Positions 6,092-49,839 are shown, counted from the stretch's first letter. The stretch is 64,000 nt of DNA from Alphaproteobacteria bacterium (GCA_044375625.1 JBILMH010000001.1:8667-72666); one strand, 5' to 3'. The notes: generated by a model from the sequence alone, not told the origin. Program-made: numbers and translations.

Positions 6092-6478
6092 ATGGTGTTG
6101 GTAAGCGTGATGCGCCCGCTGCTACCGCAATTGCAAGTCCAGCTGCAAGCCAGCCTGCCCCCCAATGCGCCTCCCCATTTGGGGCAGCAGCAGGATACCG
6201 CGACCAAGCCGCGCGAACGCCTGAAAAAACCGCCGCTGTATCGCGTGTTGCTGCTGAACGACGATTTTACCCCGATGGACTTTGTTGTTGATATTCTGGA
6301 AACTATTTTCCGCAAAAATCATGAGGAGGCTACGATCGTCATGTTGCATGTTCACAATCATGGGGTGGGGGTTTGCGGTATCTACAGCTGTGAGGTGGCG
6401 GAAAGTAAGGTGCAGCAGGTGTTGGACTATGCGCACGCCTTTGGCCATCCATTGCGCTGCACGATGGAGCGGGCATAG
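6092..6478 (+). CDS. clpS: ATP-dependent Clp protease adaptor ClpS
   Basis: Conserved core [28 protein letters not shown]…. It lies directly upstream of clpA. Confidence 0.9.
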
Positions 6479-6508
6479 GAAAAGATTTTTGCAACAGGGG
6501 GGTAACCA

Positions 6509-8869
6509 ATGTTAAGCCGTAATTTAGAAAGAACGCTGCATCGCGCGTTGGATTTTGCCACTCAACGGTACCATGAGTTTGCCACGCTGGAACATTTGTT
6601 GCTGGCGCTGACCGATGATCCAGAGGCGGTGGCGGTCATGCGTGGTTGCCATTTGGATCTGGCCAAGCTGCAACAAGATCTGAAGACCTATATCGATGGC
6701 GAACTGGCCAATTTGGTTAATCGACAAATTAAGGAATCTAAGCCAACGGCGGGCTTTCAACGGGCGGTGCAGCGTGCGGTTATCCATGTACAGTCCGCCA
6801 GCCGCAGTGAGGTGACGGGGGCAGACCTGTTGGTTGCGATGTTTTCTGAACGGGAATCGCACGCGGTGTATTTCCTGCAAAGCCAGGATGTTACCCGTTT
6901 CGATGTGGTCAACTTTTTGTCGCATGGCATCAGCAAATCTTCTGCTGGCCATCGCGATGCCGCCAGCAAGCCCGCCGATCATCAGCAGGAGGAGGGGGGT
7001 AGCCCGTCGGAGCGTCCGCATCGCCGCACCCCCAGCGCGCTGGAATCCTATACCACCAACCTGAACGAACGGGCGGCAGCGGGCAAAATTGATGTGCTGA
7101 TTGGTCGTGAAGCGGAGCTGGAACGGACAATTCATATTTTGTGCCGCCGTACCAAAAACAATCCGTTGTTTGTCGGCGATCCGGGGGTGGGCAAAACCGC
7201 CCTGGCGGAGGGATTGGCGTTGAAGATTGTGGCGGGGGATGTACCCGAAAAGCTAAAGCCCGCGGTCATTTACGCGCTGGACATGGGAGCATTGCTGGCG
7301 GGAACCCGCTATCGCGGTGATTTTGAGGAGCGGTTGAAAACCGTCATGAGTGAGCTGGCCGCCAAAGACATGGCGATTTTGTTTATTGATGAGATTCACA
7401 CCGTGATCGGGGCAGGCGCCACCAGTGGCGGCGCGATGGATGCCTCAAACATCCTGAAACCCGCGCTGGCCAAGGGTTCATTGCGCTGTATGGGATCGAC
7501 CACTTACCAAGAATTTCGCAACCATATTGAAAAGGATCGCGCCCTGGCGCGTCGGTTCCAGAAAATTGATATTCCCGAACCCAGCCCTGGCGATACGTTG
7601 GCGATCCTGCGCGGCCTTAGCGGTGCCTATGAAACCTATCACCATGTGCGTTTTGATCCGCCCGCGTTGCAGGCGGCCATCGACCTATCCACCCGCTATA
7701 TCCACGACCGCAAGCTGCCCGATAAGGCCATCGACGTGTTGGATGAGGCTGGCGCGGCGGCGCACCTGGCCAACAAAAAGGGCGCGACCAGCACGGCTAA
7801 GCGTCGCCGCCTGGTAACGGTGGCCGATGTGGAAAAGGTGGTGGCCAGAATGGCGCGGGTGCCCGCCAAACAGGTGACGCATGATGATAGAACCCAGCTG
7901 ATTCAGCTGGAACGCAACCTGAAAACCATGGTGTTCGGCCAGGATCAGGCGATTTTGGAGCTGTCGGCGGCGATAAAGCTGTCACGGGCAGGCCTGCGTG
8001 ATGGTGAAAAACCGATAGGCAGCTATCTGTTTTCGGGGCCAACCGGCGTTGGTAAGACGGAGGTGGCGCGGCAATTGTCCAAAGCCTTGGGCATTGAATT
8101 GGTGCGCTTTGATATGTCGGAATATATGGAACGCCACAGCATTGCGCGGCTGATTGGGGCGCCGCCAGGCTATGTTGGCTTTGAACAGGGGGGGCTGCTG
8201 TCGGACGCCATCGACCAACACCCGCACTGCGTGTTGTTGCTGGACGAAATCGAAAAGGCGCATCCCGACCTGTTCAATTTGTTGTTGCAGGTGATGGACT
8301 ATGGAAAATTGACCGACCACAACGGCCGCCATGTCAGCTTTCGCAACGTCATTTTGATCATGACCACCAACGCTGGCGCGGCCGACTTGGCCAAACCCGC
8401 CATTGGTTTTGCCCATAACAGCAGGGAAGGGGACGATAAGGAGGCGATCAACCGCCTGTTTACGCCAGAGTTCCGCAACCGACTGGACGCGGTGATTCCC
8501 TTTGCCGCGCTTAGCCCCGCCGCGATTGAACGCATTGTCGATAAGTTCATCATGCAGCTGGAAATGCAGTTGCAGGAGCGCAACGTCACCATTGATTTGA
8601 ATAAGGAGGCGCGCGCCTATCTGGCGACCCATGGGGTGGAGCCTGGCTTTGGCGCCCGCCCAATGGCGCGGTTGATTCAGCAGGAGATTAAACAGCCGCT
8701 GGCGGAGGAGTTGTTGTTCGGGCGGCTGGCCAAGGGCGGCATGGTGCGGGTAACGGTTAAGGATGGCCGCCTGCACTTCATCTATCCCGACCTGCCCGTG
8801 CCATCAACAGGTGGCGAGGGCGAAAAACCGCTGCGTGCCAAGCGCAAACCCACCACTGTTCCTCGTTAG
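6509..8869 (+). CDS. clpA: ATP-dependent Clp protease ATP-binding subunit ClpA
   Basis: N-terminal Clp_N repeats. Two AAA+ modules (GDPGVGKTA and GPTGVGKTE Walker A motifs). ClpA-specific length and position after clpS. Confidence 0.95.
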
Positions 8870-9047
8870 GGGATGGGGGTGGAGTAGGGCACTTTGCAAC
8901 CCTTGCCATAGCGTACAATTTTAAAAAGCTTCTGTTGACTTTATCTATTTAATAGATTATATATTTTATATGAAGCATTAATAGCATTTTTTATGAGTAA
9001 GTCTTAATATTAAAATGCATTATTGGATTAATTGATGGGTAAAAAAA

Positions 9048-9857
9048 ATGAATAAAAGTTTTTTGAACAAAAATAATGTATTAATTGTTCCAATGGAACC
9101 TAGCAAGGAACAAATAGACTGGCTTGCTTTTAGGTGGGGTCATGTTAGAGATTATGAAGAGAATTTTGATAAACCTCTTCAAGAATTCAAAAATCTACCT
9201 CCGAATACAACGCAATTGTTTGTCATGTGTATGGCAGCGGAGGGTTGGAATGTTGAAAAAGCAATTTTTCGTCTAAATGAATTTGGCATTAATGATGCAA
9301 ATGCGATCGCGGCCGCTCAAAAAGATCTAGGTTTGTGCGATAATAATAACTTATTAGATGGAAAAGCTGTAAAAATAACAATGCCGTGTTTTATAGCGGT
9401 CGATTTAGTTGCGAATTCAAAAAAACTTTTAGAAGATGCCATCAAAAAATGCCCTGACTTTTTAAAAAAAGTGGATCTAAGATGTTCCAATATGCCAAAT
9501 ACTATTTTGCGACGTGCGGATCTTACAGAGACTGATTTCGAGGGAGCAAATCTTAAAGGTGCCGATTTACGTGAAGCAAACCTAGAAAAAGCTGTTTTGT
9601 GGAAAGCAAAAATGGTTTTTGCAAGAATAGGGCGCGGTATTGTTAATTCTAAGACGAATTTTACTGGGGTAAATCTTAGTGGTGTAACCAATTTACCATG
9701 GAATCCTGAGGTCAATCGCTTTGGTTATGTGTTTGCCAGAGGGGTTGATCGTACAACACGTCAGCAGATGTATGGCGAGGATAAACTCATAGGGGGACTG
9801 TCCAACATTTTAGAGGCGGGAAATAATGTGCTTAAGGCTTTTGGCCTTAACCGTTAG
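9048..9857 (+). CDS. pentapeptide-repeat protein (unique N-terminal domain + C-terminal pentapeptide block), AT-rich island
   Basis: The C-terminal part reads …ADLTETDFEGANLKGADLREANLEKAVL…. The gene body and its upstream region are ~35% GC, far below the flanking genes. Confidence 0.7.
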   Translation: MNKSFLNKNNVLIVPMEPSKEQIDWLAFRWGHVRDYEENFDKPLQEFKNLPPNTTQLFVMCMAAEGWNVEKAIFRLNEFGINDANAIAAAQKDLGLCDNNNLLDGKAVKITMPCFIAVDLVANSKKLLEDAIKKCPDFLKKVDLRCSNMPNTILRRADLTETDFEGANLKGADLREANLEKAVLWKAKMVFARIGRGIVNSKTNFTGVNLSGVTNLPWNPEVNRFGYVFARGVDRTTRQQMYGEDKLIGGLSNILEAGNNVLKAFGLNR

Positions 9858-9890
9858 CTTTGGAAACGCTACCTTTTTCAAAACTTTGGG

Positions 9891-9917
9891 GCGGGGGTCG
9901 GTATAGAACCCCCGCGC
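9891..9917 (-). terminator. GC hairpin (GCGGGGGT…ACCCCCGC), probable terminator for convergent trpS / pentapeptide gene
   Basis: An 8-bp perfect inverted repeat sits between the convergent gene ends. On the minus strand it is followed by a TTTTG/AAAAA run. Confidence 0.4.
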
Positions 9918-9943
9918 TGTAGGAGAAGTCCGCTTGAAGCGCT

Positions 9944-10948
9944 CTACCGCAAACCCATCCGCTCCATCACCCCCTGCAGGGTGGGTTTGGCGATGGCGTT
10001 GGCATTGGCCGCGCCGGTGGTTAGCACCTGTTGCAGATAGGCCTTGTCGGCCAGCAATTGTTGCATCCGCTGGCCAATCGGGGGCAGGTGATCCACCAAG
10101 GCGGCGGTCAGTTTGGCCTTAAAGCCTGAAAATTGGCCGCCCCCCACTTCGGGCAGCACATCGGCCAGGCTTTTGCCCTGAATGGCGGCATAGATGGTCA
10201 GCAGGTTGCGTGCCTCCGGCCGGTTGGCCAGCCCCGCCGCGTCAGAGGGCAGGGCGTCGGGGTCGGTCTTGGCGCGCTTAATTTTGTCGGCAATGGTGTC
10301 GGCATCGTCCAGCAGGTTGAGGCGCGATTGGTCAGAGGCATCCGACTTGCTCATTTTTTTGGTACCGTCGCGCAGGCTCATCACCCGTGTCGCCTCCCCC
10401 ATCATCAGCGGTTCAGGCAGCGGGAAAAAGTTTTCCCCGAACTGGTGGTTAAAGGCGCCAGCAATGTCGCGGGTCAGCTCCACATGCTGCTTCTGATCCT
10501 CTCCCACCGGCACTTGCGTTGCCTTATACAGCAAAATGTCGGCGGCCATCAGGGCGGGATAGGCCAACAGCCCCAGCCCCGAATTGTCACGATCCTTACC
10601 CGCCTTATCCTTAAACTGCGTCATGCGGTACAGCCAGCCCAGCGGGGTTTGGCATCCCAAAATCCACCCCAATTCGGCATGGCCGCTGACATGGCTTTGC
10701 ACAAAAATGCTGTTGTGGGCGGGATCCAGCCCACAGGCCAGATAGGCCGCCGCCGCCTCCAACACCGCCTGGCGCAGCTTGGCCGGTTCCTGCGCCACCG
10801 TGATAGCGTGCAGGTCAACGACGCAGAACAGGGAGTTTTGCGGGGTGGCGTTCTGGGCACGCGACAGGGCAACCCAGTTGCGGATCGCGCCCAAATAGTT
10901 GCCCAGGTGAATATTGCTGGTCGGCTGAATGCCCGAAAGGATGGTCAT
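9944..10948 (-). CDS. trpS: tryptophan--tRNA ligase
   Basis: Class I HIGH-type motif (NIHLGNYLG) and KMSKS motif (KMSKSD); ~334 aa. Confidence 0.95.
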   Translation of the reverse strand: MTILSGIQPTSNIHLGNYLGAIRNWVALSRAQNATPQNSLFCVVDLHAITVAQEPAKLRQAVLEAAAAYLACGLDPAHNSIFVQSHVSGHAELGWILGCQTPLGWLYRMTQFKDKAGKDRDNSGLGLLAYPALMAADILLYKATQVPVGEDQKQHVELTRDIAGAFNHQFGENFFPLPEPLMMGEATRVMSLRDGTKKMSKSDASDQSRLNLLDDADTIADKIKRAKTDPDALPSDAAGLANRPEARNLLTIYAAIQGKSLADVLPEVGGGQFSGFKAKLTAALVDHLPPIGQRMQQLLADKAYLQQVLTTGAANANAIAKPTLQGVMERMGLR

Positions 10949-12549
10949 GGTTCTAACGTGTTGTTTTGGTTGGAATTGCTAGCTTTGGCCTTGCGCTTGC
11001 TTTTGCCCTTCAGGGGATTAAAGCGCGCCAAATCGCCCCAAGCATAAACCCGCATCCACCCCAACAGCAAGAAGTACAGAGCGCTGGCCGCCGCAATAAT
11101 CACACCAAGGCCGATAACCTTTGCCAGCAGATGCCCGTCCAGATAGGGGGTCAGCAGCGGGCGGGTAAGAGCCAGCAGCAGTGCCATCGACAGGGCGGCT
11201 ATCACGATTTTTTGCAGGGTGTTGCGTAGGCGAAAATCGCCCAACCAATAGCCACGCTTATGCGACAGCCAGGCCAGGGCTGCAACATTGCCCCAGGAGG
11301 ATAGGGCGGTGGCCAGGGCTATGCCAACCTGCGCCATTGGCCAGATCAGCAGCAGCTTTAGGATAAGGCTGGCGCCCAACCCTGCCAGCGCGATTTTCAC
11401 CGGCGTGCGGGTATCACCATGGGCGTAGAACCCTGGCGTAAAGACTTTAATCAGTACATAGGCGGGCAGGCCGATGACATAGGCCTGCAGGGTGGCGGCG
11501 GTGGCGATGGCATCGGTGGGCAGAAATTTGCCGCGCTGAAACAGGGTGACGATAATCGGAAAAGCCAGCAGCAGCAGGCCGATGGCGGCGGGCAGGGTGA
11601 TGGCCAACCCCAACTCTATCGCCCGATTTTGAATATGGTGGCTGCCCTGATGATCGCCATCCGCCAGTTTTTTGGACAACAGCGGAATCAGGCTGGTGCC
11701 CAGGGCAACCCCAATAACGCCCAGCGGCAATTGGTTCAGTCGATCGGCAAAGTACAGATAGGAAATGGCGCCCTGATCCAAATAACTGGCCAGCTGCATA
11801 TCGATAATCACACTAAGGTACAGGCCGCCCGCACCCAGGGAGACGGGCACCATCCGCCGCAACATGGTGCGCACCTCTGGCGTCAGGGCGGGACGGCGCA
11901 GGCGTGGTTGCACCCCTGCCTTTTTGCAAGCGCGCCAGCACCAGGCCAGCTGCAACACACCAGCCAGCGTTATCGACCATGACAGCCAATAGCCCGCCAC
12001 CGCCGCATCCCCAACCCGTAGCAGCATTGCCAGGATCATGACGGCGTTTAACAGGGTTGGCATGCTGGCAGGAACCGCAAAACGCTCATGCGCGTTCAGC
12101 AGGCTGCTAAGCAGGGTGACCAGCGACACAAAAAACAGATAGGGAAAGGTAATGCGGCAAAAATCAATCGCCAGCGCCAAGACATCAGGCTTGCTGCCAA
12201 AACCTGAGGCAAAGGCATGAATGACATAGGGCATCCCGATTTCCACCAGCAGCAGAAAGGGGATTAGCACGGTTACCAACACCGCCAACGCCTGTTCGGC
12301 AAACAACAACGCCCCCTGTTTGCCATCGTTTTTCAGGCATTTGGTGTATTGCGGCACAAAGGCGGCGTTAAACGTACCCTCACCAAAAAATTGGCGAAAA
12401 AAATTGGGCAGGCGAAAGGCTACCAAAAAGGCGTCGGCGATTGGCCCCGCCCCCAACACCGCCGCCAACATCGAATCGCGGATGAATCCGACAACGCGGC
12501 TAAGCATCGTTAGGCCGCTGATGGTGGTAAAGGCTTTGGCAAGGCTCAT
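10945..12549 (-). CDS. murJ: lipid II flippase MurJ (MviN)
   Basis: N-terminus …LSRVVGFIRDSMLAAVLGAGPIADAFLVAFRLPNFFRQFFGEG…; 534 aa and multi-TM. Confidence 0.9.
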   Translation of the reverse strand: MSLAKAFTTISGLTMLSRVVGFIRDSMLAAVLGAGPIADAFLVAFRLPNFFRQFFGEGTFNAAFVPQYTKCLKNDGKQGALLFAEQALAVLVTVLIPFLLLVEIGMPYVIHAFASGFGSKPDVLALAIDFCRITFPYLFFVSLVTLLSSLLNAHERFAVPASMPTLLNAVMILAMLLRVGDAAVAGYWLSWSITLAGVLQLAWCWRACKKAGVQPRLRRPALTPEVRTMLRRMVPVSLGAGGLYLSVIIDMQLASYLDQGAISYLYFADRLNQLPLGVIGVALGTSLIPLLSKKLADGDHQGSHHIQNRAIELGLAITLPAAIGLLLLAFPIIVTLFQRGKFLPTDAIATAATLQAYVIGLPAYVLIKVFTPGFYAHGDTRTPVKIALAGLGASLILKLLLIWPMAQVGIALATALSSWGNVAALAWLSHKRGYWLGDFRLRNTLQKIVIAALSMALLLALTRPLLTPYLDGHLLAKVIGLGVIIAAASALYFLLLGWMRVYAWGDLARFNPLKGKSKRKAKASNSNQNNTLEP

Positions 12550-17758: not shown

Positions 17759-19039
17759 ATGGCCATGACCAATCAATTGACAGATATCGAAAAAAAAATC
17801 CTGGAACACGAAGCGTGGGTTGATGGAGAGGAAACAGGATCTCGTTTGGTGCTTTCTGGTCGGTCCTTAGCAAGAATCCAAATGCCTAATCGCATGCTTA
17901 AGTCGGCAAAAATGATGGGTTGTGATCTGCAAGAGGGCAATTTTGCAGGAACCGATCTAAGTTTTTCAGATTTGTTTTGTTCCAATTTGGAACGCGCCAA
18001 TTTTTCCGAAGCCAATTTGATGCGTGCCAGCATGCGTGGGGTTAAAATTCGTAACGCCAATCTACGTGGAGCCAATTTAACGGAGGCCGATTTGCGGGCG
18101 GGGGCGATTGTTCGCCATGTTAATGAGGCCGCGGAAGAGGTCAGGACGGATCTGTCGTTCAGTCGGTTGGATGACGCCGTTATGCCCAATGTTAATCTAA
18201 ATGGCGCGGATTTGCGCAATGCCATCATGACAGGTGCTAACCTTAAAGGGGCTTATCTGCGCGGATGCAACTTGAGTTCCGTGGATTTGCGTAATGCGGA
18301 TTTATCCAATGTGGACTTGTCCAATGCTGATTTAAGCTTTGCCAATCTTAAGGGGTCATCCCTAAGCTATGCTGTCATCAGTCGTACCAGTTTTGACAAC
18401 GCTGTTGTTGATAATATGGATATCACGGGCACAGTCTTTGATGATAGCGCCCCGGCTGAACTGGTTGACATGCTGCAAGATAAAAGCCGCAACCAACCCC
18501 GCAAATTGGATGAGGTGTTGGCCAACCATGTGCAATGGATTGATTCACAGGGTGCCAAGGGGCAGCGGGCGATATTGGTCAAACGGGATCTTAGTAGTTT
18601 TGATTTGAATCATGTCAATCTTAGTGGGGCTGATTTACAAGAAGTTTTACTAATTGAGGCCAATTTGTTCCGTGCACTTTTGGTCATGACGAATCTTAGT
18701 GCCGCCAACTTGCGGGATGCCAATCTGTCCAAAGCCAATTTGGCTGGTGCCAATTTAACAGGTGCTGACCTTAGCCATGCCGATCTTAGAGATGCTGTTC
18801 TTAAGGCTATCATTTCGCGTGCCAGTAGTGCGCTCCCAGGTTCCAAATTGTGGCCAACCAACCTTAGCAATGCCAGGTTGGTGAACAGCAATCTTAATGG
18901 CGTGAATTTGACGGGGGCAAACCTGGCTGGTGCTGACCTTCGGGGAGCCAGCCTGCGTCGCGCCGTGCTTATAGGTGCCAATCTGACGGGGGCTAATATC
19001 GATAAAGCCGACTTCACCGATGCCATTTTGAAACAATAG
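17759..19039 (+). CDS. pentapeptide-repeat protein (426 aa), paralog of 53353..54723
   Basis: Long runs of A(D/N)LxxANLxGADLxxA…, with a central non-repeat linker (HVQWIDSQGAKGQRA). GC is lower than the flanks. Confidence 0.8.
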   Translation: MAMTNQLTDIEKKILEHEAWVDGEETGSRLVLSGRSLARIQMPNRMLKSAKMMGCDLQEGNFAGTDLSFSDLFCSNLERANFSEANLMRASMRGVKIRNANLRGANLTEADLRAGAIVRHVNEAAEEVRTDLSFSRLDDAVMPNVNLNGADLRNAIMTGANLKGAYLRGCNLSSVDLRNADLSNVDLSNADLSFANLKGSSLSYAVISRTSFDNAVVDNMDITGTVFDDSAPAELVDMLQDKSRNQPRKLDEVLANHVQWIDSQGAKGQRAILVKRDLSSFDLNHVNLSGADLQEVLLIEANLFRALLVMTNLSAANLRDANLSKANLAGANLTGADLSHADLRDAVLKAIISRASSALPGSKLWPTNLSNARLVNSNLNGVNLTGANLAGADLRGASLRRAVLIGANLTGANIDKADFTDAILKQ

Positions 19040-21670: not shown

Positions 21671-21702
21671 ATATTTGAAAAATTTTTGAAGGACGGCTGA
21701 TT

Positions 21703-22884
21703 ATGACCAGAAAAGAGCTCGAAAAGCTTTTACAGGCTGGTGAGTCTAATAAAATTGAGTTCAAAAGCAGATTCACTAAAGACAACAAATTGCCTCAGAC
21801 AATTTGCGCATTTGCTAATAATCTAGATGGTGATGGCAAACCTGGATATATCATTATTGGCATCAATAATGATAAAACATTTAGTGGATTGCGTGATACC
21901 GATCAAATACAAACGACAATTGCTGAATATCGTTCAAACGCTAACATTAATCCGTTGCCATCTATAAGTGTACAACTCATCTCATGTGACGAGGGTGATG
22001 TGCTGGTAGTAAAAGTAGAGCCTTCATCAACCCCACCTCTACGCTATGAAGGGGTGGTATGGGTTAGAACGGGATCCAGCACTAGGAGGGCAAATCCAGA
22101 AGATGAACGTCGGCTTTCAGAGAAACGAACATCTTTGACAAAAACTTTTGACGCTGAGCCATGTAGAGATGCTTCTGTTGATGATCTAGCATTGCGCTTG
22201 TTTGATGAGTATCGCGGGCACGCAGTCAATTCTAGCGTTATAGCCGAGAATCATCGAAGTACCGATGAAAAATTAGCCTCTTTAAGTTTTTTTGATTTGA
22301 AAAATCAATGTCCGACTTATGCAGGGATATTATTATTTGGCACCAATATTCGGAATTTTTTACCAGGAGCTTATGTGCAATTTCTAAAGTTTTCAGGTAG
22401 TGATATTTCGGATCAACCAGAAGACATAGATGAAATCAATGGAGATTTAAGGACGCTTGTTGACAGAGTTTATGAGAAAATTCGTTCACATAATCGTGTT
22501 TCTCTGGTCAAAGGTGAACGTTTTGTAGAGAAGAATGTTCCAGAATATCCCGAATCTTCTCTGCGAGAATTTTTGAATAATGCTATTATACATCGTGATT
22601 ATCAATCAAATACTCCAATTCGGTTTTATTGGTATGAAGATCGCATAGAAATTTCAAGTCCTGGTGGTCTTTATCCTCCTGTAACTTATGATAAAATTGA
22701 AAAAAGGACTGGCTATAGAAATCCAATTGTTGCAAATGCGATGAAAGAGCTGGGGTATGTCGAAAAATTTGGCCGTGGCATTCAGACTGCTCAAAAAGCA
22801 CTGCAGGATAATGGTAACCCAGCAGCAGAGATTGCAAGAGAAGAAGGGTTTTTTCAGGTGACAATTTATAGGCGGGAATCATGA
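21703..22884 (+). CDS. AlbA_2 (Schlafen-like divergent AAA) + HATPase_c_4 domain protein (often annotated as putative transcriptional regulator / RecG-C-like)
   Basis: N-terminus …ESNKIEFKSRF…ICAFANNLDGDGKPGYIIIGINND… (AlbA_2). C-terminus …REFLNNAIIHRDYQSN…IEISSPGGLYPP…YRNPIVANAMKELGYVEKFGRGI (HATPase_c_4). GC is ~40%. Confidence 0.7.
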   Translation: MTRKELEKLLQAGESNKIEFKSRFTKDNKLPQTICAFANNLDGDGKPGYIIIGINNDKTFSGLRDTDQIQTTIAEYRSNANINPLPSISVQLISCDEGDVLVVKVEPSSTPPLRYEGVVWVRTGSSTRRANPEDERRLSEKRTSLTKTFDAEPCRDASVDDLALRLFDEYRGHAVNSSVIAENHRSTDEKLASLSFFDLKNQCPTYAGILLFGTNIRNFLPGAYVQFLKFSGSDISDQPEDIDEINGDLRTLVDRVYEKIRSHNRVSLVKGERFVEKNVPEYPESSLREFLNNAIIHRDYQSNTPIRFYWYEDRIEISSPGGLYPPVTYDKIEKRTGYRNPIVANAMKELGYVEKFGRGIQTAQKALQDNGNPAAEIAREEGFFQVTIYRRES

Positions 22885-23918
22885 AGATTGTTGCATTTTT
22901 TAACAACAAAGGTGGGGTAGGTAAAACAACCCTTGTTTACCATTTAGCCTGGATGTTTTCGCGTAAAAAAATTAAGACACTGGCGGTTGATTTGGATCCG
23001 CAAGCTAATCTGACGGCTATGTTTCTGAAGGAGGAACAATTAGGAGAAATTTGGCCAGATGGTGAGCATCCTAAAACCATTTATGGTGCTATCCGTCCGC
23101 TTACCAAGGGAACTGGTGATGTTCTTGATAATCCGCATGTGGAAGAAATACCAGATGTTATTCTCGATATTCTACATGTGGAAGAAATAGCGGAGTCTTC
23201 TTTAGGTTTAATTCCTGGAGATCTAGGGTTATCGCTTTTTGAAGATAAATTGTCAGAATCTTGGCCTAAATGTCATAATGGAGATGAGTCAGCTTTTCGC
23301 ACCATGACGGCTTTTTACCGTATTATTGAAAAAGCTGCTAAAGGATATGATTTGGTGCTGGTTGATATAGGTCCGAATTTGGGAGCAATCAACCGATCCG
23401 CTCTTATTTCCTGCGACCACGTTGTGTTGCCCTTGGCGGCGGATTTGTATTCGTTGCAAGGACTAAAAAACTTAGGGCCAACGTTGCGAAGTTGGCGCAA
23501 GACCTGGGGGGAGTTAAAGTCTAAAGCTCCAGGTGATTTGTCATATCCTAGTGGCGATATGAAACCAGCTGGATATGTGGTGATGCAACATGGCGCCAGA
23601 AAGGATCGTCCAGTTAAGGCTTACGATCGTTGGATGGCCAAAATTCCTGAAGTCTATCGGAAGTTTATTTTGGCCGAAGAAAACCCTAACGAGACCATAA
23701 CCGTTAACGACGATCCGTATAAATTGGCTACACTTAAGCACTATCACAGCTTAATGCCATTGGCACAGCAGTCACATAAGCCAATGTTTGATTTGAAACC
23801 TGCTGATGGAGCCATTGGTTCTCATGTTGAGTCAGTACAGGGTTGTTATCGCGATTTTGAAGCTTTGGCGAAAAGATTGGCACAAGAGATCGAATTGGTA
23901 TGGCCAGATGGTGCCTAG
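22881..23918 (+). CDS. ParA/Soj-like deviant Walker-A ATPase (AAA_31/CbiA family) with ~120-aa C-terminal extension
   Basis: N-terminal MKIVAFFNNKGGVGKTTL… and DLDPQANLT. The start overlaps the upstream stop (ATGA), and the gene is in the same low-GC island. Confidence 0.7.
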   Translation: MKIVAFFNNKGGVGKTTLVYHLAWMFSRKKIKTLAVDLDPQANLTAMFLKEEQLGEIWPDGEHPKTIYGAIRPLTKGTGDVLDNPHVEEIPDVILDILHVEEIAESSLGLIPGDLGLSLFEDKLSESWPKCHNGDESAFRTMTAFYRIIEKAAKGYDLVLVDIGPNLGAINRSALISCDHVVLPLAADLYSLQGLKNLGPTLRSWRKTWGELKSKAPGDLSYPSGDMKPAGYVVMQHGARKDRPVKAYDRWMAKIPEVYRKFILAEENPNETITVNDDPYKLATLKHYHSLMPLAQQSHKPMFDLKPADGAIGSHVESVQGCYRDFEALAKRLAQEIELVWPDGA

Positions 23919-23936
23919 TATTGAGTTATAACCCCC

Positions 23937-24539
23937 ATGCCCATTTCTGACCAAAGCTTGCTGTTGCATGCCTATCGTCGTGGGTTTTTCCCAATGGCTA
24001 AGGGGCGGGAGGAGTCAGAGATTTATTGGGTTGCCCCCGATCGGCGCGGCATCATTCCGTTGGATAGCTTCCACATTCCGCACAGCCTGCGCAAATTTCT
24101 GAAGCACAGCGGCTTTCACTACAGCATCAATCAGGCGTTTGAGACGGTGTTGTTATCCTGCGCTGCGCCGCGCGCAAAACAGCCCGACAGTTGGATTAAC
24201 CCGGCGATTGCCGCCCTGTATCGGGATCTTTGGCAGCGCGGCTTTGCCCATAGTGTAGAGGTTTGGCAGGGGGCGGTGGGGGAACAGCTGGTCGGTGGGT
24301 TATACGGCGTGGCGATGGGGGCGGCGTTTTTTGGCGAAAGCATGTTTAGCCGTCAAACCAATGCCAGCAAGGCGGCGTTGGTAGAGCTGGTACGGCACCT
24401 AAACGAACGCGGATTTCGCCTGTTGGATGCCCAATTCTATACCCCCCATTTAGGGCAGTTCGGCGCGCAGGAAATTGACCAGGCCGACTATCTGGTTCTG
24501 TTGGACGACGCCTTAGCCCGTGACGCACGTTTTGTTTAG
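23937..24539 (+). CDS. aat: leucyl/phenylalanyl-tRNA--protein transferase
   Basis: …RGFFPMAKG…WVAPDRRGIIPLD…LVGGLYGVAMGAAFFGESMFSRQTNASKAALV… (Aat signatures). Confidence 0.85.
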   Translation: MPISDQSLLLHAYRRGFFPMAKGREESEIYWVAPDRRGIIPLDSFHIPHSLRKFLKHSGFHYSINQAFETVLLSCAAPRAKQPDSWINPAIAALYRDLWQRGFAHSVEVWQGAVGEQLVGGLYGVAMGAAFFGESMFSRQTNASKAALVELVRHLNERGFRLLDAQFYTPHLGQFGAQEIDQADYLVLLDDALARDARFV

Positions 24540-24783
24540 GGGAAATGCTCTGAATCGCCCCACAGCATGGGTGACAAGTTGGCGGTTTGGCGTATCATGA
24601 GGGCGATTGAACCGCTATAGTCATTCCACTTTAAAAATCTACAGTGCTGCAAATGTCACGATCTCTGTGATACGGTGCTCATGTACGTCCGTGTACGCTC
24701 CGCTCCGTTTCTCGACCTCGTAACATTTTCGCAGGCTGTATATTTCTAAATTGGAACAACTATAAAACCCATACGTCCCGCCG

Positions 24784-27700
24784 ATGAAGCCCGCCGCCAA
24801 CGCCCTATCCATGACCAATGCCGCCATTAAGGCCACAGGCCAGCCCCCCTTAACGCCAGGGCAGGCGGTCACCCTGTACGCCGCACCGCAGGGTTATCGC
24901 GCCCTACAGCTGGCTGGGTGGCAGCGGGCATCCCCTGGCCGCTGGCTGGTGGTGACGGCGGATGAACGGGGCGTAGCCAGCTGGGCGGCGGATTTGGCGG
25001 TGGTTGCGCCGGATCTGACGGTGCTGACCCTGCCCGCCTGGGACTGCCTGCCCTATGATCGCAGCCCCCCGCACGCGGCGGTGATGGGGCAACGGCTGGC
25101 CACCCTGCATCAGTTGCAGGCTGACCCCGCCCGCTCCACGATAGTGTTAGCCCCTGTGGCGGCGTTGTTGCAGCGGGTGTTGCCCGCCACCGAGCTGGCC
25201 AAGTTGGTCTTTCCGTTGAAAACAGGAGCGTTGCTGAACCGCGACAACCTGCTGCGCTGGATGAATGACCAGGGTTATGAGCGGATGGAAACCGTGCGGG
25301 AACCTGGACAATACGCGGTGCGCGGCGGTCTGTTGGATCTGTTTGCGCCCGCGGGGGATCAGGCCTTGCGCCTGGACTTTTTCGGGGCGGAGCTGGAACG
25401 GTTGCGGCGCTTTGACCCGCTGAGCCAACGCAGCCTGGGTGAGGTGGAGGAGGCGTTGCTGCTGCCCGCCAGCGAGATAAGCCTGAACGAGGCGACCATC
25501 CGACGATTCCGCGATAACTACCGCGCGACCTTTGGCGCGGCCGCCCTGCATGACCCGCTGTATCTGGCGATTACTGAGGGGCGACGGTTTAGTGGCGCCG
25601 AACACTGGTTGCCGCTGTTTTACGATCATCTGGCCAGCCCGCTGAGCTATTTTGGCGCGGACACCCGAGTGGTGATGGAGGAGGAGGCGTTGCCGCGTGG
25701 CCAGGCCTTTTTGCAAAGCGTGCAGGAATACGCCGCCGCCCGTCGGCAGCATGCCCGCACCGGTGACACCCCCTATCGCCCGCTGGCGGAGGAGTTGTTG
25801 TACCTGAAGGCGGCGGAGTGGCAGCAAGATTTAACCCGATACCCGCTGGGGCAATGGCTGGCGCGGGAACGCCTGCCTACGCATCTGCCAGGCCTTGCGG
25901 AGCAGCAACATTGGTCAGTGGGCGGTGAGCAGGGCTATAATTTTGTGACCATCCGCCAGGATGCCGCGCAAAACCTGCTGGCCAAGGTGGTGGACTATAT
26001 CCAGGCCGAATGGGCGGCGGGGCAGGCCGTCATCCTGACTTGCTATTCTGAGGGCAGCAGCCAACGGTTAAGCCAACTGCTGCGGGAGGCTGGCTTAACC
26101 AACCTGCGCCCCGCACCGACTTGGCCAGACCAGCCCCAGCCGCAATTGTTGGAGCTGGTGCAATGGCCGTTGGCGGCGGGGTTCCGCAGCGAAGGGCTGA
26201 CCGTTATTTCCGAGGCCGACATTTTTGGTGAGCGGTTGGGTGCCAGCCCAAGCCGTAGCCGTGGCCGTCGGGCGGAGCATTTTATCCGCGACCTGACCGC
26301 CCTGCTGCCAGGTGATTTGGTGGTGCATGCCGATCACGGTATCGGAAAATTTGAAGGCCTGACGATGATCAGCGCGGGTGGGGTGCGCCACGATTGCCTG
26401 TGCCTTATCTACGCCGACAACGCGAAGCTGTATCTGCCGGTTGAGAATTTGGAGTTGCTAAGCCGTTTCGGGGGGGAGGAGGCCGCCGCGGGCGTCGCCC
26501 TGGATCGCCTGGGCGGGGCAGCCTGGCAAGCGCGTAAGGCGCGGGTGAAGAAACGCCTGATGGAAATGGCGGGGCAGCTGATTCAAACGGCGGCCAGCCG
26601 CGCGATGGCGCAGGCGCCCGAAATTGCCCCTGACCAGACCGCCTATCAGGCCTTCTGCGCCCGCTTTCCCTATGCGGAGACCGAGGATCAGGAGCAGGCG
26701 ATTGCTGATGTGCTGGCCGATTTGGCGGCGGGTAAGGCAATGGATAGGCTGGTTTGCGGCGATGTCGGCTTTGGCAAGACTGAGGTGGCGTTGCGGGCAG
26801 CCTGCGCCGTGGCGCTGTCGGGTTGGCAGGTGGCGGTGGTGGCGCCAACCACCCTGTTGGTGCGCCAACATGCCGCCAATTTTACCAACCGTTTTGCTGG
26901 CCTGCCCGTCCGCCTGGGCGCGCTGTCCCGCCTGACCCCCGCGGCGGTGGCGACCGACACCAAAAAAGCCTTGGCCAGTGGGCAGGTCGATGTGGTAATC
27001 GGCACCCACGCCCTGCTGAGCAAGTCGATGAATTTTGCCCGCCTTGGTCTGGTCATTGTGGATGAGGAGCAGCATTTTGGCGTGGCGCAGAAGGAGCGGT
27101 TGAAGGAGTTGCAGGCGGGCGTTCACGTCCTGACCCTGACCGCGACGCCGATTCCCCGCACGTTGCAGCTGGCTTTGTCGGGGGTGCGCGACCTAAGCCT
27201 GATCACCACCCCGCCCGTTGATCGTCTGGCGGTGGAAACCCATGTGATGCCGTTTGACCCCGTGGTGCTGCGTGAAGCCCTGCTGCACGAATACCATCGC
27301 GGCGGCCAAAGCTTTTTTGTGGTGCCGCGCATTGAGGATCTGCCCAAGTTGCAGGAGGAGTTGGCCGAATTGGTGCCAGAGATCAAAATTGCCGTCGCCC
27401 ATGGCGGCCTAAGCGCGGGCGATCTGGAGGCGGTGATGGGGCAATTCCTGGATCGTCGTGCCGACCTGTTGCTGTGTACTCATATTATTGAATCGGGGCT
27501 GGATATTCCGCACGCCAACACCATCATCATCCACCGCGCCGATCGTTTCGGCCTGTCGCAACTGTACCAGCTGCGCGGGCGGGTAGGGCGGGGCAAGGTG
27601 CGCGGCTATGCCTATCTCACCCTGCCGGCGGGGCAGGTGGTGACCGAATCCGCCACCCGCAGGTTGCAGGTGATGGCGGGACTGGATCAACTGGGCGCGG

Positions 27701-28380
27701 GATTCCAACTGGCCAGCCATGATTTGGATATTCGCGGTGCGGGCAATCTGTTGGGCGATGAACAGTCGGGGCAGATCCGTGAGGTGGGGATTGAGCTGTA
27801 TCAGCAGATGTTGGCCGACGCGGTGGCAACGGTTAAGGCGGGCGGTACAGCGGGCGGCGGCGATGGGGCAGCAACCCAGCCGCAGGGTCAGGATTGGACG
27901 CCCACCATTCAAATCAGCGATACCGCCCTGTTTATCCCAGAGGACTATATTGGCGATTTGAATCTGCGCCTGCAAATCTATCGCCGCCTGGCGGATCTGG
28001 CCACCACGGCGGAGGTGGAGGCGATGGCGGTGGAGCTGATCGACCGTTTCGGCAAGTTGCCGGCGCAGGTGGACAATTTGTTGCAGCTGCTGATCATCAA
28101 ACAACACTGCAAGACGTTGAATATTGATCGGTTGGAGGCGGGGCCAAAGGCGGTTGTGCTGTCCTTCCACAACCATCAATGCCCCAACCCAACCGCGTTG
28201 GTGCAGATGATTGCCAGTGACCCGATTCGGTTTAAGCTGCGCCCTGATCAGCGCCTGGTGTACAGCCTGGGTGGATCCCTGACCCAACTAAGCGCCCTGG
28301 CCGCCTGTCAACACGTCTTGGCGCGGCTGGCGAAACTGGCGGAGCCAATCCTAAATGCGCAGGCAGTTCAACAACGATAA
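24784..28380 (+). CDS. mfd: transcription-repair coupling factor
   Basis: 1198 aa with a UvrB-interacting N-terminus, a central RecG-like helicase (GDVGFGKTEVA Walker A; DEEQHFGV) and the TRCF C-terminal domain. Confidence 0.95.
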   Translation: MKPAANALSMTNAAIKATGQPPLTPGQAVTLYAAPQGYRALQLAGWQRASPGRWLVVTADERGVASWAADLAVVAPDLTVLTLPAWDCLPYDRSPPHAAVMGQRLATLHQLQADPARSTIVLAPVAALLQRVLPATELAKLVFPLKTGALLNRDNLLRWMNDQGYERMETVREPGQYAVRGGLLDLFAPAGDQALRLDFFGAELERLRRFDPLSQRSLGEVEEALLLPASEISLNEATIRRFRDNYRATFGAAALHDPLYLAITEGRRFSGAEHWLPLFYDHLASPLSYFGADTRVVMEEEALPRGQAFLQSVQEYAAARRQHARTGDTPYRPLAEELLYLKAAEWQQDLTRYPLGQWLARERLPTHLPGLAEQQHWSVGGEQGYNFVTIRQDAAQNLLAKVVDYIQAEWAAGQAVILTCYSEGSSQRLSQLLREAGLTNLRPAPTWPDQPQPQLLELVQWPLAAGFRSEGLTVISEADIFGERLGASPSRSRGRRAEHFIRDLTALLPGDLVVHADHGIGKFEGLTMISAGGVRHDCLCLIYADNAKLYLPVENLELLSRFGGEEAAAGVALDRLGGAAWQARKARVKKRLMEMAGQLIQTAASRAMAQAPEIAPDQTAYQAFCARFPYAETEDQEQAIADVLADLAAGKAMDRLVCGDVGFGKTEVALRAACAVALSGWQVAVVAPTTLLVRQHAANFTNRFAGLPVRLGALSRLTPAAVATDTKKALASGQVDVVIGTHALLSKSMNFARLGLVIVDEEQHFGVAQKERLKELQAGVHVLTLTATPIPRTLQLALSGVRDLSLITTPPVDRLAVETHVMPFDPVVLREALLHEYHRGGQSFFVVPRIEDLPKLQEELAELVPEIKIAVAHGGLSAGDLEAVMGQFLDRRADLLLCTHIIESGLDIPHANTIIIHRADRFGLSQLYQLRGRVGRGKVRGYAYLTLPAGQVVTESATRRLQVMAGLDQLGAGFQLASHDLDIRGAGNLLGDEQSGQIREVGIELYQQMLADAVATVKAGGTAGGGDGAATQPQGQDWTPTIQISDTALFIPEDYIGDLNLRLQIYRRLADLATTAEVEAMAVELIDRFGKLPAQVDNLLQLLIIKQHCKTLNIDRLEAGPKAVVLSFHNHQCPNPTALVQMIASDPIRFKLRPDQRLVYSLGGSLTQLSALAACQHVLARLAKLAEPILNAQAVQQR

Positions 28381-28386
28381 GCTGGA

Positions 28387-28794
28387 TTAAAACTTTCGCT
28401 TTGCCCACCCAAAAACCCCATAGCGTAGTAGGGCGCGGGCGTTGTGAAGGACGCTAACGGGGCGTTTTACAATCGCATCCTGGAACAGGGCGATGGCGGG
28501 GCGATTTTCCCTTTGGTAAATATATCCAATCCCCAACATCAATCCGCAGTGGCGGCAGACCAGCTTTTTATCGGTGGCGAATTCCTGGGCAAATTCCTGG
28601 ATAAGATTGGGCGACAATTCCTGTGCCGACCTGTCCATCATCACGCGATCTAGGTACAGTCGGCGCAGCGATCCAAAGCCGTCTTTTTGATACAGGCACA
28701 GCGTTGTGGCGCAGCATCGGCAGGTTATTGTGTAGAACCGAAAAACGCCGCGGCGATTGGCCAAAAACGAATCGCGCTTTGCCACTGCCATCAT
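28387..28794 (-). CDS. hypothetical protein with two CxxC pairs (possible zinc-ribbon)
   Basis: ORF between the convergent mfd and recA ends at ~52% GC. It contains CRCC…CRHCG but no family I can name. Confidence 0.25.
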   Translation of the reverse strand: MMAVAKRDSFLANRRGVFRFYTITCRCCATTLCLYQKDGFGSLRRLYLDRVMMDRSAQELSPNLIQEFAQEFATDKKLVCRHCGLMLGIGYIYQRENRPAIALFQDAIVKRPVSVLHNARALLRYGVFGWAKRKF

Positions 28795-28842
28795 GGGCTA
28801 TCACACCTATCACACTTAGCACACCATTTTGCGCAAAGGCCG

Positions 28843-30000
28843 CTAAATGTCTTCAGCGTCGCTGATGGCCGCGCCGCCGCCCAGGCCGCCACCCTCATTG
28901 GCCTCAGCCGCCTCAGCGCTGGTAGGCTCCGCGATTAGGTTTTCGGCAACCAGGCCAGCGTTTTGTCTGATGTAGGCCTCAATACTGTCGGCCAAGGCGG
29001 GATTATCCTTCAGGAATTGTTTGGAATTCTCGCGCCCCTGACCAATCCGTTGCCCCTGCGCGCTGAACCAGGCGCCCGATTTTTGCACCACGCCAGCGGC
29101 CTCACCCAGGTCAATCAGCTCACCAATTTTGGAAATACCCGCGCCATAGATCATGTCGAATTCCACCTGACGGAAGGGGGGTGCCAGCTTATTTTTCACC
29201 ACCTTAACCCGCGATTTTTGACCCAGGATGACATCCTTATCCTGAATTTTGCCGATGTTGCGGATATCCAAACGAACCGAGGCATAGAATTTTAGGGCGT
29301 TACCGCCGGTGGTGGTTTCGGGATTGCCCCACATCACCCCAATTTTTTGGCGCACTTGGTTCAAAAAGATCACCATGGTGCGGGAACGGGAGATAGAGGC
29401 TGTCAATTTCCGCAAAGCCTGGCTCATCAACCGTGCCTGCAATCCCATATGGGAATCGCCCATATCCCCCTCCAACTCCGCCTTTGGTACCAGGGCGGCA
29501 ACCGAATCGACCACCAACACATCCACCGCGCCGCTGCGCACCAGGGTGTCACAAATCTCCAACGCCTGTTCCCCATGATCGGGCTGGCTGATAATCACAT
29601 CGTTCAGCACCACGCCCAGCTTTTGGGCATAGGCGGGATCCAGGGCGTGCTCTGCGTCAATAAAGGCGCAGGTGCCGCCCGCCTTTTGCGCCTCAGCAAT
29701 CACATGCAGCGCCAGGGTGGTTTTACCAGAGCTTTCCGGGCCAAAAATTTCAATAATCCGCCCACGGGGCAAGCCGCCAACGCCCAGCGCGATGTCCAGG
29801 CCGAGAGATCCTGTCGAAATCACCTCAACCTCCACCGCCTGATCCCGTTGACCCAAGCGCATGACCGAGCCCTTGCCAAAGGCGCGCTCAATCTGCCCCA
29901 TCGCGGCCTCTAAAGCCTTCAGGCGCTCGCCCGCCTTTTGGTCGGTGGGTTTTAATTCGGTCACATTGGTGTTGGAAGATGACGTTGCGCGAATCGACAT
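28843..30000 (-). CDS. recA: recombinase RecA
   Basis: …[22 protein letters not shown]…[38 protein letters not shown]… with N- and C-terminal low-complexity tails. Confidence 0.95.
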
Positions 30001-35231: not shown

Positions 35232-35335
35232 TGGGGTGATAAAAAAATTCCCCAAATGTTCATTGTGTACAAACAAACAAAATGGTACAATTGCCCTTGG
35301 GTCAAACAAAATATTGTTTGTTGGAAAGGTGTGAC

Positions 35336-35605
35336 ATGAGCCGTATATCAATTGAAGTAAGTCCAGAGCAGCACCAACGCCTTAAGGCTTTTGCTGCTTT
35401 GCGCGGTGAAACTATCAAAGATTACATTTTGGGCTGTGCCTTGCCGCCATCAGCGTCTGCAGAGGTTTTGACGGAGGAACAGGCCTTGCAAGAGCTTGAG
35501 CAACTATTGCTTCCTCGTGTTGAAGCGATTAAACGCGGCGAGATCAGTGCCAAAAGCTTTGAGGAAATTATCGCCGAAGCACGCAATGAGGCGGCAGCGT
35601 TGTGA
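35336..35605 (+). CDS. parD: type II antitoxin, ParD/RHH-like
   Basis: Small protein MSRISIEVSPEQHQRLKAFAALRGETIKDYIL (ribbon-helix-helix-like) overlapping the downstream toxin. Confidence 0.6.
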   Translation: MSRISIEVSPEQHQRLKAFAALRGETIKDYILGCALPPSASAEVLTEEQALQELEQLLLPRVEAIKRGEISAKSFEEIIAEARNEAAAL

Positions 35606-35913
35606 AACCTTTTTGCATTTCTGTTGCAGCTGAAAAAGATTTAAAACAGATTTGGCGATATACCGCTCAACATTATGGTATATTGCAAGCGGATTTATAT
35701 ACTAATGTTCTGCTGTTAGGGTGTCAAAAAATCGCCCAGCAACCGTTGGTCTTTCTCTCTCTTAGATTGGCCAACCAAGATTTTAGAGTGTATCGATATA
35801 AGAATCATTATATTTTGTATTTAGTTGCTGATGATAAGGTTGTAATTGTTGCATTTTTTCATGAGCGCATGGATATAATGGTTCGACTAAGAGCAAGGTT
35901 AGAAAATAGTTAA
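35602..35913 (+). CDS. parE: type II toxin, ParE/RelE family
   Basis: 103 aa. The start overlaps the antitoxin stop (GTGA). Typical ParE layout (…AEKDLKQIWRYTAQHYG…VYRYKNHYILYLVADDKVVIVAFFHERMD); lower GC. Confidence 0.7.
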   Translation: MKPFCISVAAEKDLKQIWRYTAQHYGILQADLYTNVLLLGCQKIAQQPLVFLSLRLANQDFRVYRYKNHYILYLVADDKVVIVAFFHERMDIMVRLRARLENS

Positions 35914-48828: not shown

Positions 48829-49275
48829 TTACTTGCCAAGGTCATCAGGATTGGTCAATTTGTCAACCCGTCCTTGATGACGTCCCCCCTCAAACGGGGT
48901 GGTCACGAAAATTTGCAACATTTCGGCAGCCTGGGCAGGGGTCACCACCGCCGTTCCCATGGCCAGCACGTTGGCGTCGTTATGTTGGCGGGTTTGTTGC
49001 ACCAACTCTTTGTTGTGGCACAGGGCGGCACGCACCCAGGGATAGCGGTTGGCAGCCATGGTAATGCCCACCCCCGAATTGCAAATAAGCACGCCGTAAT
49101 CGGCTGAACCGTTTTTGATGGAACGTGCCACAGCAGTCGCATAGTCATTATAGTCAACGCTGTCAGAACCGCTGCATCCCACATCAATAAAGCTTAAAGT
49201 TGGGGCATAGGATTGCTGCATCAAAAATTGTTTTAATGCAAAACCACGATGATCCGATCCGATAGCAATTTTCAT
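48829..49275 (-). CDS. rpiB: ribose-5-phosphate isomerase B
   Basis: [15 protein letters not shown]…; ~148 aa RpiB/LacAB family. Confidence 0.9.
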
Positions 49276-49383
49276 TTTGAAGCCTTATTTAAGAAAAGAA
49301 AGAAAAAAGCGGATAATCCCTTTACACGCTACTTTGTTTGTTGTAAGTCTGCCCTTGTTGAACACATTAACCAAGGATTAAAA

Positions 49384-49839
49384 ATGTCTGAAATAAACAA
49401 CGCCGATCTGACCAACGCACAACTGTTGGAAATGACGACCGATATTACTACCGCCTACCTTAGCCGTAATACAGTTAACGTAGACCAAATTCCTGAACTG
49501 CTGCGTAGCGTGTATAGCACCCTGGATCAGTTCCAACAAGGTGTTGTGGTGGAAAAAGCCGAAGCGCAAAAGCCATTCACCAGCATCAAGAAGTCGATTA
49601 CCGATGACTACATCATCTGCCTGGAAGATGGCAAAAAGCTGAAAATGCTGAAGCGTCACCTGCGCACCACCTACAACATGACGCCTGACCAATACCGTGC
49701 GAAATGGGGTCTGCCTTCGGACTATCCAATGGTGGCGCCAAACTACGCCCAACGTCGCGCCGAATTTGCCCGCCAAATCGGTCTGGGCAAAAAAGCTGCC
49801 AACAAAAACAGCGTCAAAAAAGCCAAAAAAGTAGCCTAA
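49384..49839 (+). CDS. mucR: MucR/Ros-family zinc-finger transcriptional regulator
   Basis: …IICLEDGKKLKMLKRHLRTTYNMTPDQYRAKWGLPSDYPMVAPNYAQRR… (the Ros/MucR C2H2-like signature); alphaproteobacteria-specific family. Confidence 0.9.
   Translation: MSEINNADLTNAQLLEMTTDITTAYLSRNTVNVDQIPELLRSVYSTLDQFQQGVVVEKAEAQKPFTSIKKSITDDYIICLEDGKKLKMLKRHLRTTYNMTPDQYRAKWGLPSDYPMVAPNYAQRRAEFARQIGLGKKAANKNSVKKAKKVA

Follow-up and report, generated by a model that had tools for sequence, protein, structure and literature searches.

A strain-variable single-gene islet between clpA and trpS encodes a lineage-restricted pentapeptide-repeat protein in an alphaproteobacterium

An AT-rich pocket holding one gene, for the pentapeptide-repeat protein P0001, lies between clpA and trpS in a 64,000-nt stretch of DNA from an uncultured Alphaproteobacteria bacterium (GCA_044375625.1 JBILMH010000001.1:8667-72666; the whole stretch is called the window here, and all coordinates are relative to it), and it raises the question of whether this segment is accessory DNA, how it has been exchanged between strains and what its product may do. 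Since closely related strains show an empty site, the segment 8888-9940 is a single-gene accessory islet set in the ~29-bp clpA/trpS spacer and polymorphic in the population, which bears out the compositionally foreign pocket proposed in a first-pass annotation of the sequence. As to exchange and function, the probable reading is that of a recombination-exchanged single-gene islet encoding a non-catalytic binding scaffold. The features concerned are as follows.

8888..9940, no strand: islet insert of 1,053 bp relative to the empty clpA-trpS site of close strains (from homology to L096)
9048..9857, + strand: protein-coding gene of P0001, a lineage-restricted pentapeptide-repeat protein of 269 amino acids (aa) (from the open reading frame call and Pfam)
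9048..9470, + strand: N-terminal domain, aa 1-141, with no fold match (AlphaFold, Pfam, PDB)
9471..9695, + strand: pentapeptide-repeat run, aa 142-216, ~15 units forming ~3.75 predicted coils of a right-handed quadrilateral beta-helix
9696..9854, + strand: conserved non-repeat C-terminal tail, aa 217-269 (53 aa) (from conservation across the family)
8888..9047, + strand: AT-rich leader with a candidate sigma-70-like promoter (from composition and hexamers read from the sequence)
9884..9922, no strand: GC-rich hairpin (core 9891-9915) between the stop of the gene and the trpS stop (from fold prediction)
8708..10535, no strand: approximate recombination tract around the insert (flanks unusually diverged from the nearest empty-site strains)
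6509..8869, + strand: clpA, left flank, context outside the insert (annotation)
9944..10948, - strand: trpS, right flank, convergent with clpA, context outside the insert (annotation)

Related strains for the comparison were drawn from 90%-identity clusters of ClpA and TrpS proteins. The empty-site contig L096 aligned to the window at 99.4% identity through position 8887, and the alignment resumed at 9941. In four empty-site contigs from different samples (L096, L100, L101 and L102) the stop codons of clpA and trpS stand 29 bp apart, and in a fifth, known from its gene coordinates only, 28 bp separate the two gene calls. These empty-site strains are the nearest relatives of the window strain, with identities of 99.3-99.5% in the 3' part of clpA and of 97.8% in murJ. 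The insert itself consists of the AT-rich leader, one gene and the GC-rich hairpin, and the gene is flanked by clpS-clpA on one side (6092-8869, + strand) and by trpS-murJ on the other (9944-12549, - strand). No other open reading frame (ORF) of note and no integrase or transposase gene were found in the islet, a scan for transfer RNA (tRNA) genes returned none in the window, and an Rfam scan of the islet gave no match. Searches of the islet for terminal direct or inverted repeats or a target-site duplication gave nothing significant, only short repeats at chance level; the sequence GTAGG, present at both insert borders, is too short to count. Neither plasmids and phages searched with the N-terminal domain nor viral contigs searched with the two close alleles of the gene yielded a relative. 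A classical integrase-mediated island, an insertion sequence or a transposon does not fit the segment, given the lack of an integrase, a transposase, a tRNA target and significant repeats.

The flanks of the insert point to the manner of its exchange. Compared with the empty-site contig L100, the window has 7 mismatches in 8708-8887, the last 180 bp of clpA left of the insert, and 17, 16 and 5 mismatches per ~200 bp in 9941-10535, the first ~600 bp on the right, after which the count falls to 0-1 mismatch per 200 bp (10536-11335). In the 3' part of trpS, 15 mismatches separate the window from L097, a strain that carries a second allele of the gene (9941-10340), against 33 from L100 (9941-10335). 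This cluster of mismatches adjoining the insert marks a recombination tract across it; the islet therefore moves by homologous recombination in the flanks, its presence or absence being swapped between strains through these conserved sequences.

The second allele (allele 2: P0131 and P0002; 286 aa) occupies the same site in more distant strains (clpA ~94% and murJ ~90% identical) and is 61-64% identical to P0001 by BLAST, or 65-68% over aligned codons. In the contigs bearing it (L097-L099 and L007/L008), the left junction and the leader are homologous to those of the window. In L008 (1-2710) and L007 (944-4736), a clpA copy lacking its 5' part (present from aa ~291) comes after allele 2, joined at a TTGT microhomology, and two orphan genes then precede trpS. 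The products of these orphan genes measure 361 aa, with a zinc-protease-like motif (HELGH), and 330 aa, the latter gene being AT-rich; a Pfam search of both proteins gave no match. With 13 differences between the 180-bp 3' ends of the two clpA copies, the additional one was probably acquired from a different strain. Short Logan contigs end within the repeated clpA sequence, the pattern expected of a real duplication. The clpA/trpS site thus forms a small hotspot, for which at least four states are seen, namely empty, allele 1, allele 2, and allele 2 with further cargo.

Variation is also found within allele 1. The variant P0130 corresponds to P0001 with 10 additional residues, the two pentapeptides AILEDANFCK, in the position of AILEDTKFCN in allele 2, so that the window copy is without half a coil, and repeat number differs between the alleles in steps of two pentapeptides. 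On the contig of P0129, a 47-nt deletion (window 9339-9385) causes a frameshift and leaves a 120-aa product. Length variants and a possible null allele, represented by P0130 and P0129 respectively, thus both segregate.

The ORF is a real, functional gene, as indicated by its open frame, its pattern of substitution and its recovery in independent data. The chance of 269 codons remaining open at the composition of the gene is ~6e-10, and the identical P0001 protein is encoded on 12 contigs, the locus having been recovered by independent assemblies from JGI, ENA, Logan and NCBI data. Between alleles 1 and 2, the ratio of nonsynonymous to synonymous divergence (dN/dS, omega) is 0.32-0.37 overall and 0.29-0.47 across segments, so that all parts of the gene are under purifying selection. 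With an omega of 0.10 for ClpA, the P0001 gene evolves far faster at the protein level, identity between the alleles being 61-68% compared with 96.6% for ClpA. Synonymous divergence (dS) is threefold higher between the alleles (~0.59) than in clpA (0.19), so that either the alleles predate the separation of the flanks in which they now lie or they evolve faster.

In composition, the islet departs strongly from its surroundings. The gene has a GC fraction of 0.378 and a GC fraction at third codon positions (GC3) of 0.30, compared with medians of 0.565 and 0.628 for the 62 ORFs of the window; the insert as a whole is at 0.372 and the 160-bp leader at 0.256. In 100-bp windows, values of 0.18-0.25 were obtained across 8900-9100, with both flanks at 0.55-0.69. 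The first-pass annotation was therefore right on the AT-rich gene and on its very AT-rich upstream region, and its chromosome of ~60% GC has to be lowered to ~55-57% (0.547 for the whole window). The comparison of codon usage with core genes that it called for shows a gene set apart from the bulk and close to a minority: the Karlin codon bias is 0.676 against bulk genes (bulk mean 0.336, standard deviation 0.112) and only 0.273 against the other low-GC genes of the window. As a correction to the same annotation, P0001 is not the sole compositional outlier, four other genes of the window being comparably AT-rich with a GC3 of 0.38 or less.

The only Pfam match of P0001 is PF00805 (Pentapeptide; 65 bits for a cut-off of 20.2, E=4.3e-18), at aa ~141-215, and the repeats make up ~75 of the 269 residues (~28%). 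An AlphaFold model computed from an alignment of two close alleles had a predicted local distance difference test score (pLDDT) of 34 and was discarded, and with ten family members in the alignment a pLDDT of 77 and a predicted template modelling score of 0.76 were obtained. In this model the regular beta-helix runs from aa 143 to ~215, with an irregular first coil that may start near aa 106, and the predicted solenoid is of the right-handed quadrilateral type. The N-terminal domain is modelled as a beta hairpin, a helix (20-33), a low-confidence linker (blocks of aa 31-50) and three helices (54-64, 69-78 and 84-93), followed in its C-terminal part by strands at ~102-119 and a helix at 123-134; its block-mean pLDDT is 82-96 except at aa 31-50. 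The tail is helical at aa 220-269 with a pLDDT below 50. It carries the motifs PWNP-VNRFGY, DRxTRQ-YG and NxLExGNxVLxxFGLNR, is kept in alleles 1 and 2, is shortened in P0121, P0125 and P0126, and retains D..TR..YG..G.VL in P0122. Accordingly, the order of an N-terminal domain followed by a beta-helix read from the sequence in the first pass is kept, with a non-repeat part of ~141 aa instead of ~150 and with the addition of the 53-aa tail, which had been overlooked.

The N-terminal domain, which the same annotation could not place, has no match in Pfam, NCBIfam or PDB sequences, and PDB profile searches with the domain and with its three-helix unit returned nothing significant. All fold-search matches of the P0001 model fall on the beta-helix and none on the N-terminal domain; among the structural neighbours of P0001 are the N-terminal domains of SopA and NleL. 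A UBA-like (TAP-C) reading of helices 54-93 was considered and rejected: TAP_C matched 2 of 6 N-terminal domains and stayed under the gathering score (best E 0.005), UBA_8 reached E=0.74, the three-helix unit had no significant PDB profile match, and hhalign of this unit against the TAP-C domain of NXF1 (1OAI_A, sequence verified) gave a probability of 0.7% over 12 columns. The check for a signal peptide suggested in the first pass was negative, neither a signal peptide nor a transmembrane segment being detected in P0001 by hydropathy, a crude test (top 19-residue Kyte-Doolittle mean 1.18, at aa 103). The N-terminus is hydrophilic except for VLIVPM.

In order to delimit the family, a profile of the 141-aa N-terminal domain was used for an exhaustive search of 1.84 billion representatives and then of a large collection. 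Only ~13 sequences among ~15 billion share the domain, namely, besides P0001, P0002, P0121, P0122, P0123, P0124, P0125, P0126, P0127 and P0128 and the variants P0129-P0131. Among 5.8 billion protein clusters, P0002 is the sole full-length relative, other matches covering the repeats only. Complete members share one plan, with the N-terminal domain, a short pentapeptide run and, in most, the tail motifs (VNRFGY...VLQxFGLNR or D..TR..YG..G.VL). A profile search with the tail alone retrieved nothing, missing even the family members, and so carries no weight; a local search for the tail motifs in ~160 kb of related DNA found family members only and no other ORF. The orthologue check proposed in the first pass thus leads to a family whose members, wherever the genomic context is readable, all lie in close relatives of the window organism; none was found in a scan of the GTDB species representatives. 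Altogether, P0001 belongs to a very small, new and narrow family, with an N-terminal domain and a tail absent from described pentapeptide-repeat proteins.

Some members of this family stand at another site. P0121 and P0125 (GC ~0.51) are found in syntenic relatives after aat, upstream of recA in L013. One 19-kb contig holds both the clpA-linked P0131 (GC 0.34) and the aat-linked P0125 (GC 0.51), which are 30% identical, and the window itself has the clpA-linked copy only. On contig L015 (554-1320), the tail motif ...VLQAFGLNR* lies beyond the end of P0123 (161 aa) in a different reading frame; a frameshift or a mis-call probably accounts for the shortness of this protein. The window also encodes two other large pentapeptide-repeat proteins, of 426 and 456 aa (17759-19039 and 53353-54723; GC ~0.48), which bring the number of such proteins to three in 64 kb and have only the repeats in common with P0001. 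The first of them is conserved (424 aa) in L013, L097 and L103 and looks like the product of a core gene of the lineage.

The AT-rich leader may control when the gene is expressed. It contains a candidate promoter made of TTGACT (8935-8940), a 17-nt spacer and TATATA (8958-8963), and the otherwise diverged sister allele keeps TTGATT-17-TATAAA; a consensus scanner did not list the candidate, position 6 of its -10 hexamer being A. A MucR/Ros-family zinc-finger regulator is encoded at 49249-49839 (E=7.5e-49), and in alphaproteobacteria MucR is known to act as a xenogeneic silencer on AT-rich accessory genes (PMC9410896). The leader is therefore a plausible candidate target of the genome's own MucR/Ros silencer, and conditional expression is plausible because an allele-conserved -35/-10 pair and a genome-encoded MucR/Ros protein occur together. 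MucR could also control all AT-rich islets of the window. At the other end of the gene, the hairpin, which is not present in empty sites, has an 8-9 bp G+C stem on both strands with z-scores of only -1.0 and -1.4, and possibly represents a bidirectional terminator carried in by the insert.

Since neither a catalytic motif nor a signal peptide nor a membrane segment is present in P0001, the protein most probably works without catalysis, as a rigid binding scaffold in which the beta-helix surface and the family-specific N-terminal domain would bind a macromolecular partner and block or recruit it. Changes in repeat number would then alter the geometry of the interaction surface, and the tail may mediate export or, like the C-terminal helices of Qnr/MfpA-type proteins, dimerisation. 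Fast protein divergence, together with presence or absence among near-identical strains, suggests a role in biotic conflict with a host, phage or competitor and not in housekeeping. Several considerations weigh against this scaffold reading. The function is argued by analogy, from missing catalytic features and the general behaviour of pentapeptide-repeat proteins, and the N-terminal domain, fold-searched only within the whole protein, may have a known enzymatic or binding fold. The tract around the insert shows exchange only, which may have been a gain in the window strain or a loss in the empty-site strains. For so AT-rich a gene, a pairwise dN/dS gives only a crude estimate, and the promoter and terminator are consensus-level readings only.

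The first-pass annotation had seen in such proteins typical secreted effectors of host-associated bacteria, for which there is no direct evidence here; an effector role is unlikely, and stays a live rival given precedents such as SrfD (PMC11258249). In its explicit form, also unlikely, P0001 would be translocated by a Sec-independent route (a type IV, type I or type VI secretion system; T4SS, T1SS or T6SS) into the eukaryotic host of a protist-associated alphaproteobacterium, where the beta-helix and the N-terminal domain would bind a host target, with the C-terminal tail as the export signal. The gene is orphan-like, fast-evolving, AT-rich and strain-variable, its conserved tail lies outside the folded core, and secreted pentapeptide-repeat effectors are known, SrfD of Rickettsia binding Sec61 (PMC11258249). 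The weak matches to PipB and PipB2 models and the SopA and NleL neighbours go in the same direction, as does the NCBI label 'Holosporaceae bacterium' on sister metagenome-assembled genomes, the sole hint of host association. Other relatives, however, are labelled 'Alphaproteobacteria' or 'Rhodospirillaceae', and the nearest ClpA in GTDB, ~66% identical, comes from assorted alphaproteobacterial groups of free-living type. The 64-kb window has no secretion-system or host-dependence gene, and its broad biosynthesis and core metabolism, with FliL, do not point to a reduced endosymbiont. In the protein itself, hydropathy gives no export or membrane segment. Positively charged tails mark VirB/D4-type T4SS substrates, and the last 30 residues of P0001 have no net charge; typical T1SS substrates are acidic and Cys-poor, and P0001 has 5 Cys and more K+R (36) than D+E (32). 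The tail motifs are on no other ORF of the ~160 kb of related DNA, and no effector is among the genes of the remaining AT-rich pockets of the window, which are of toxin-antitoxin and defence type. That the whole family would consist of lineage-specific exported effectors of an alphaproteobacterial clade possibly associated with protists, with a hitherto undescribed N-terminal targeting domain, a length-variable repeat spacer and a new export signal in the tail, the clpA/trpS site being a cassette site for swapping alleles and cargo, is likewise rather unlikely.

These same pockets lend some support to a defence or counter-defence cassette of the hotspot, acting in the cytoplasm on phage or plasmid components, or to a stranded phage anti-defence gene: their codon usage is shared with P0001 (B=0.27), the gene is present or absent among strains >99% identical in clpA, other cargo occupies the site in L007/L008, and many phage proteins are pentapeptide-repeat proteins. 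Such a function is nevertheless improbable, as P0001 matches no PADLOC-DB 2.0 family at E <=0.01, has no phage, plasmid or viral-contig relative among those searched and no partner gene or enzymatic or sensor domain, and has a second paralog at a different, non-hotspot-like site in relatives. A DNA mimic of the Qnr, MfpA, McbG or AlbG kind, with an immunity-type role in shielding DNA gyrase or topoisomerase against a poison, is more improbable still. Membership of the Qnr/MfpA/AlbG/McbG group was rejected on NCBIfam scores of 16-22 bits against cut-offs of 240-500 and on repeats limited to aa 142-216; Qnr-type proteins are repeat throughout, with 8-10 coils in a long rod that resembles DNA and dimerises tail to tail, whereas P0001 has ~4 coils in ~75 of 269 residues, an N-terminal domain of 141 non-repeat residues foreign to that family, and no toxin-biosynthesis genes nearby. 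PipB and PipB2 were likewise rejected (26 bits for a cut-off of 274 and 24.4 bits for one of 354, with only the repeats matched), and over the Qnr, MfpA, HetL, PipB and PipB2 families together the scores are 16-30 bits for cut-offs of 125-500. With respect to origin, the low GC may reflect not an import from a distant AT-rich donor but a native AT-biased flexible gene pool, or AT-richness kept for regulation, an explanation that is doubtful though of some weight. Every member with a readable context belongs to close relatives, none occurs in GTDB species representatives, plasmids or phages, one genome has both an AT-rich and a near-host-GC copy (0.34 and 0.51), and codon usage is common to all AT-rich genes of the window; on the other hand, the paralogs are only 30% identical, so that their history is old, a GC3 of 0.22-0.30, compared with 0.63 for the genome, is difficult to attain unless the gene has long resided elsewhere, and the contexts of P0122, P0123, P0124, P0126 and P0127 are too short for organism assignment. 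Finally, an artefact, whether a spurious ORF, a pseudogene or a chimeric metagenome assembly, is effectively refuted: the sequence does come from metagenome assemblies and the P0129 contig does encode a product truncated to 120 aa by its deletion, but the 12 contigs of independent assemblies, a dN/dS below 0.4, the open-frame chance of 6e-10 and an architecture kept in distant members speak against it.

Among known systems, P0001 differs from pentapeptide-repeat proteins such as Rfr32 (2g0y) and Np275/276 (PF00805) in being repeat over only ~28% of its length, with the N-terminal domain and the tail in addition, and from Qnr, MfpA, AlbG and McbG in not being a repeat-only rod, in carrying a large foreign N-terminal domain and in having no resistance or toxin context. 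With PipB/PipB2, the N-terminal domains of SopA/NleL and SrfD it shares a short repeat solenoid combined with lineage-specific non-repeat domains in AT-rich accessory DNA, full-length homologues of SrfD being confined to its own genus, Rickettsia (PMC11258249); it differs in showing neither a HECT-like domain nor coiled coils nor transmembrane helices. The locus resembles recombination-hotspot islets in its empty, filled and alternative-cargo states at one site, its diverged tract and its lack of an integrase, and departs from the usual ones in being a single gene of 1 kb and in having one derived state with a 5'-truncated clpA duplicate.

If the scaffold reading is true, P0001 would be a compact and tractable protein of 269 aa, encoded by one gene with natural empty-site controls, and would show a pentapeptide-repeat solenoid joined to a new domain and exchanged as a strain cassette. 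The locus gives a base-pair-resolution record of a single-gene islet free of mobility genes, spreading by homologous recombination in core flanks, in a poorly sampled alphaproteobacterial lineage. Its value lies in adding a new domain family to structural and functional annotation and in offering a clean population-genomic case; no long-standing open question is addressed.

Other variable segments are present in the window. Between accC and aat, a second AT-rich insert of 2.27 kb (21671-23936; GC 0.41) carries a Schlafen AlbA_2 and HATPase_c_4 gene (21703-22884; PADLOC matches to pAgo/Aga-associated models) and a ParA-like AAA_31 gene (22881-23918). Because accC and aat are only 5 bp apart in the relatives L013 and L103, this segment too is a strain-variable islet, and probably a defence module. 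A ParD antitoxin/ParE toxin pair lies at 35282-35913, its toxin gene having a GC of 0.349 and a GC3 of 0.279, and a HigB-like toxin with an HTH_3 antitoxin (1971-2619, - strand) lies upstream of an nfuA-like gene, bringing the toxin-antitoxin pairs of the window to at least two. A 223-aa macro-domain protein (62526-63197, - strand; GC 0.393, GC3 0.272), with a weak DarG-like PADLOC match, is encoded by the gene of highest codon bias in the window. The aat-linked paralog of the P0121/P0125 type, which stands between aat and recA in L013, is missing from the window, and the recA-mfd segment is inverted between the two (window 23937-30000, L013 9140-16670).

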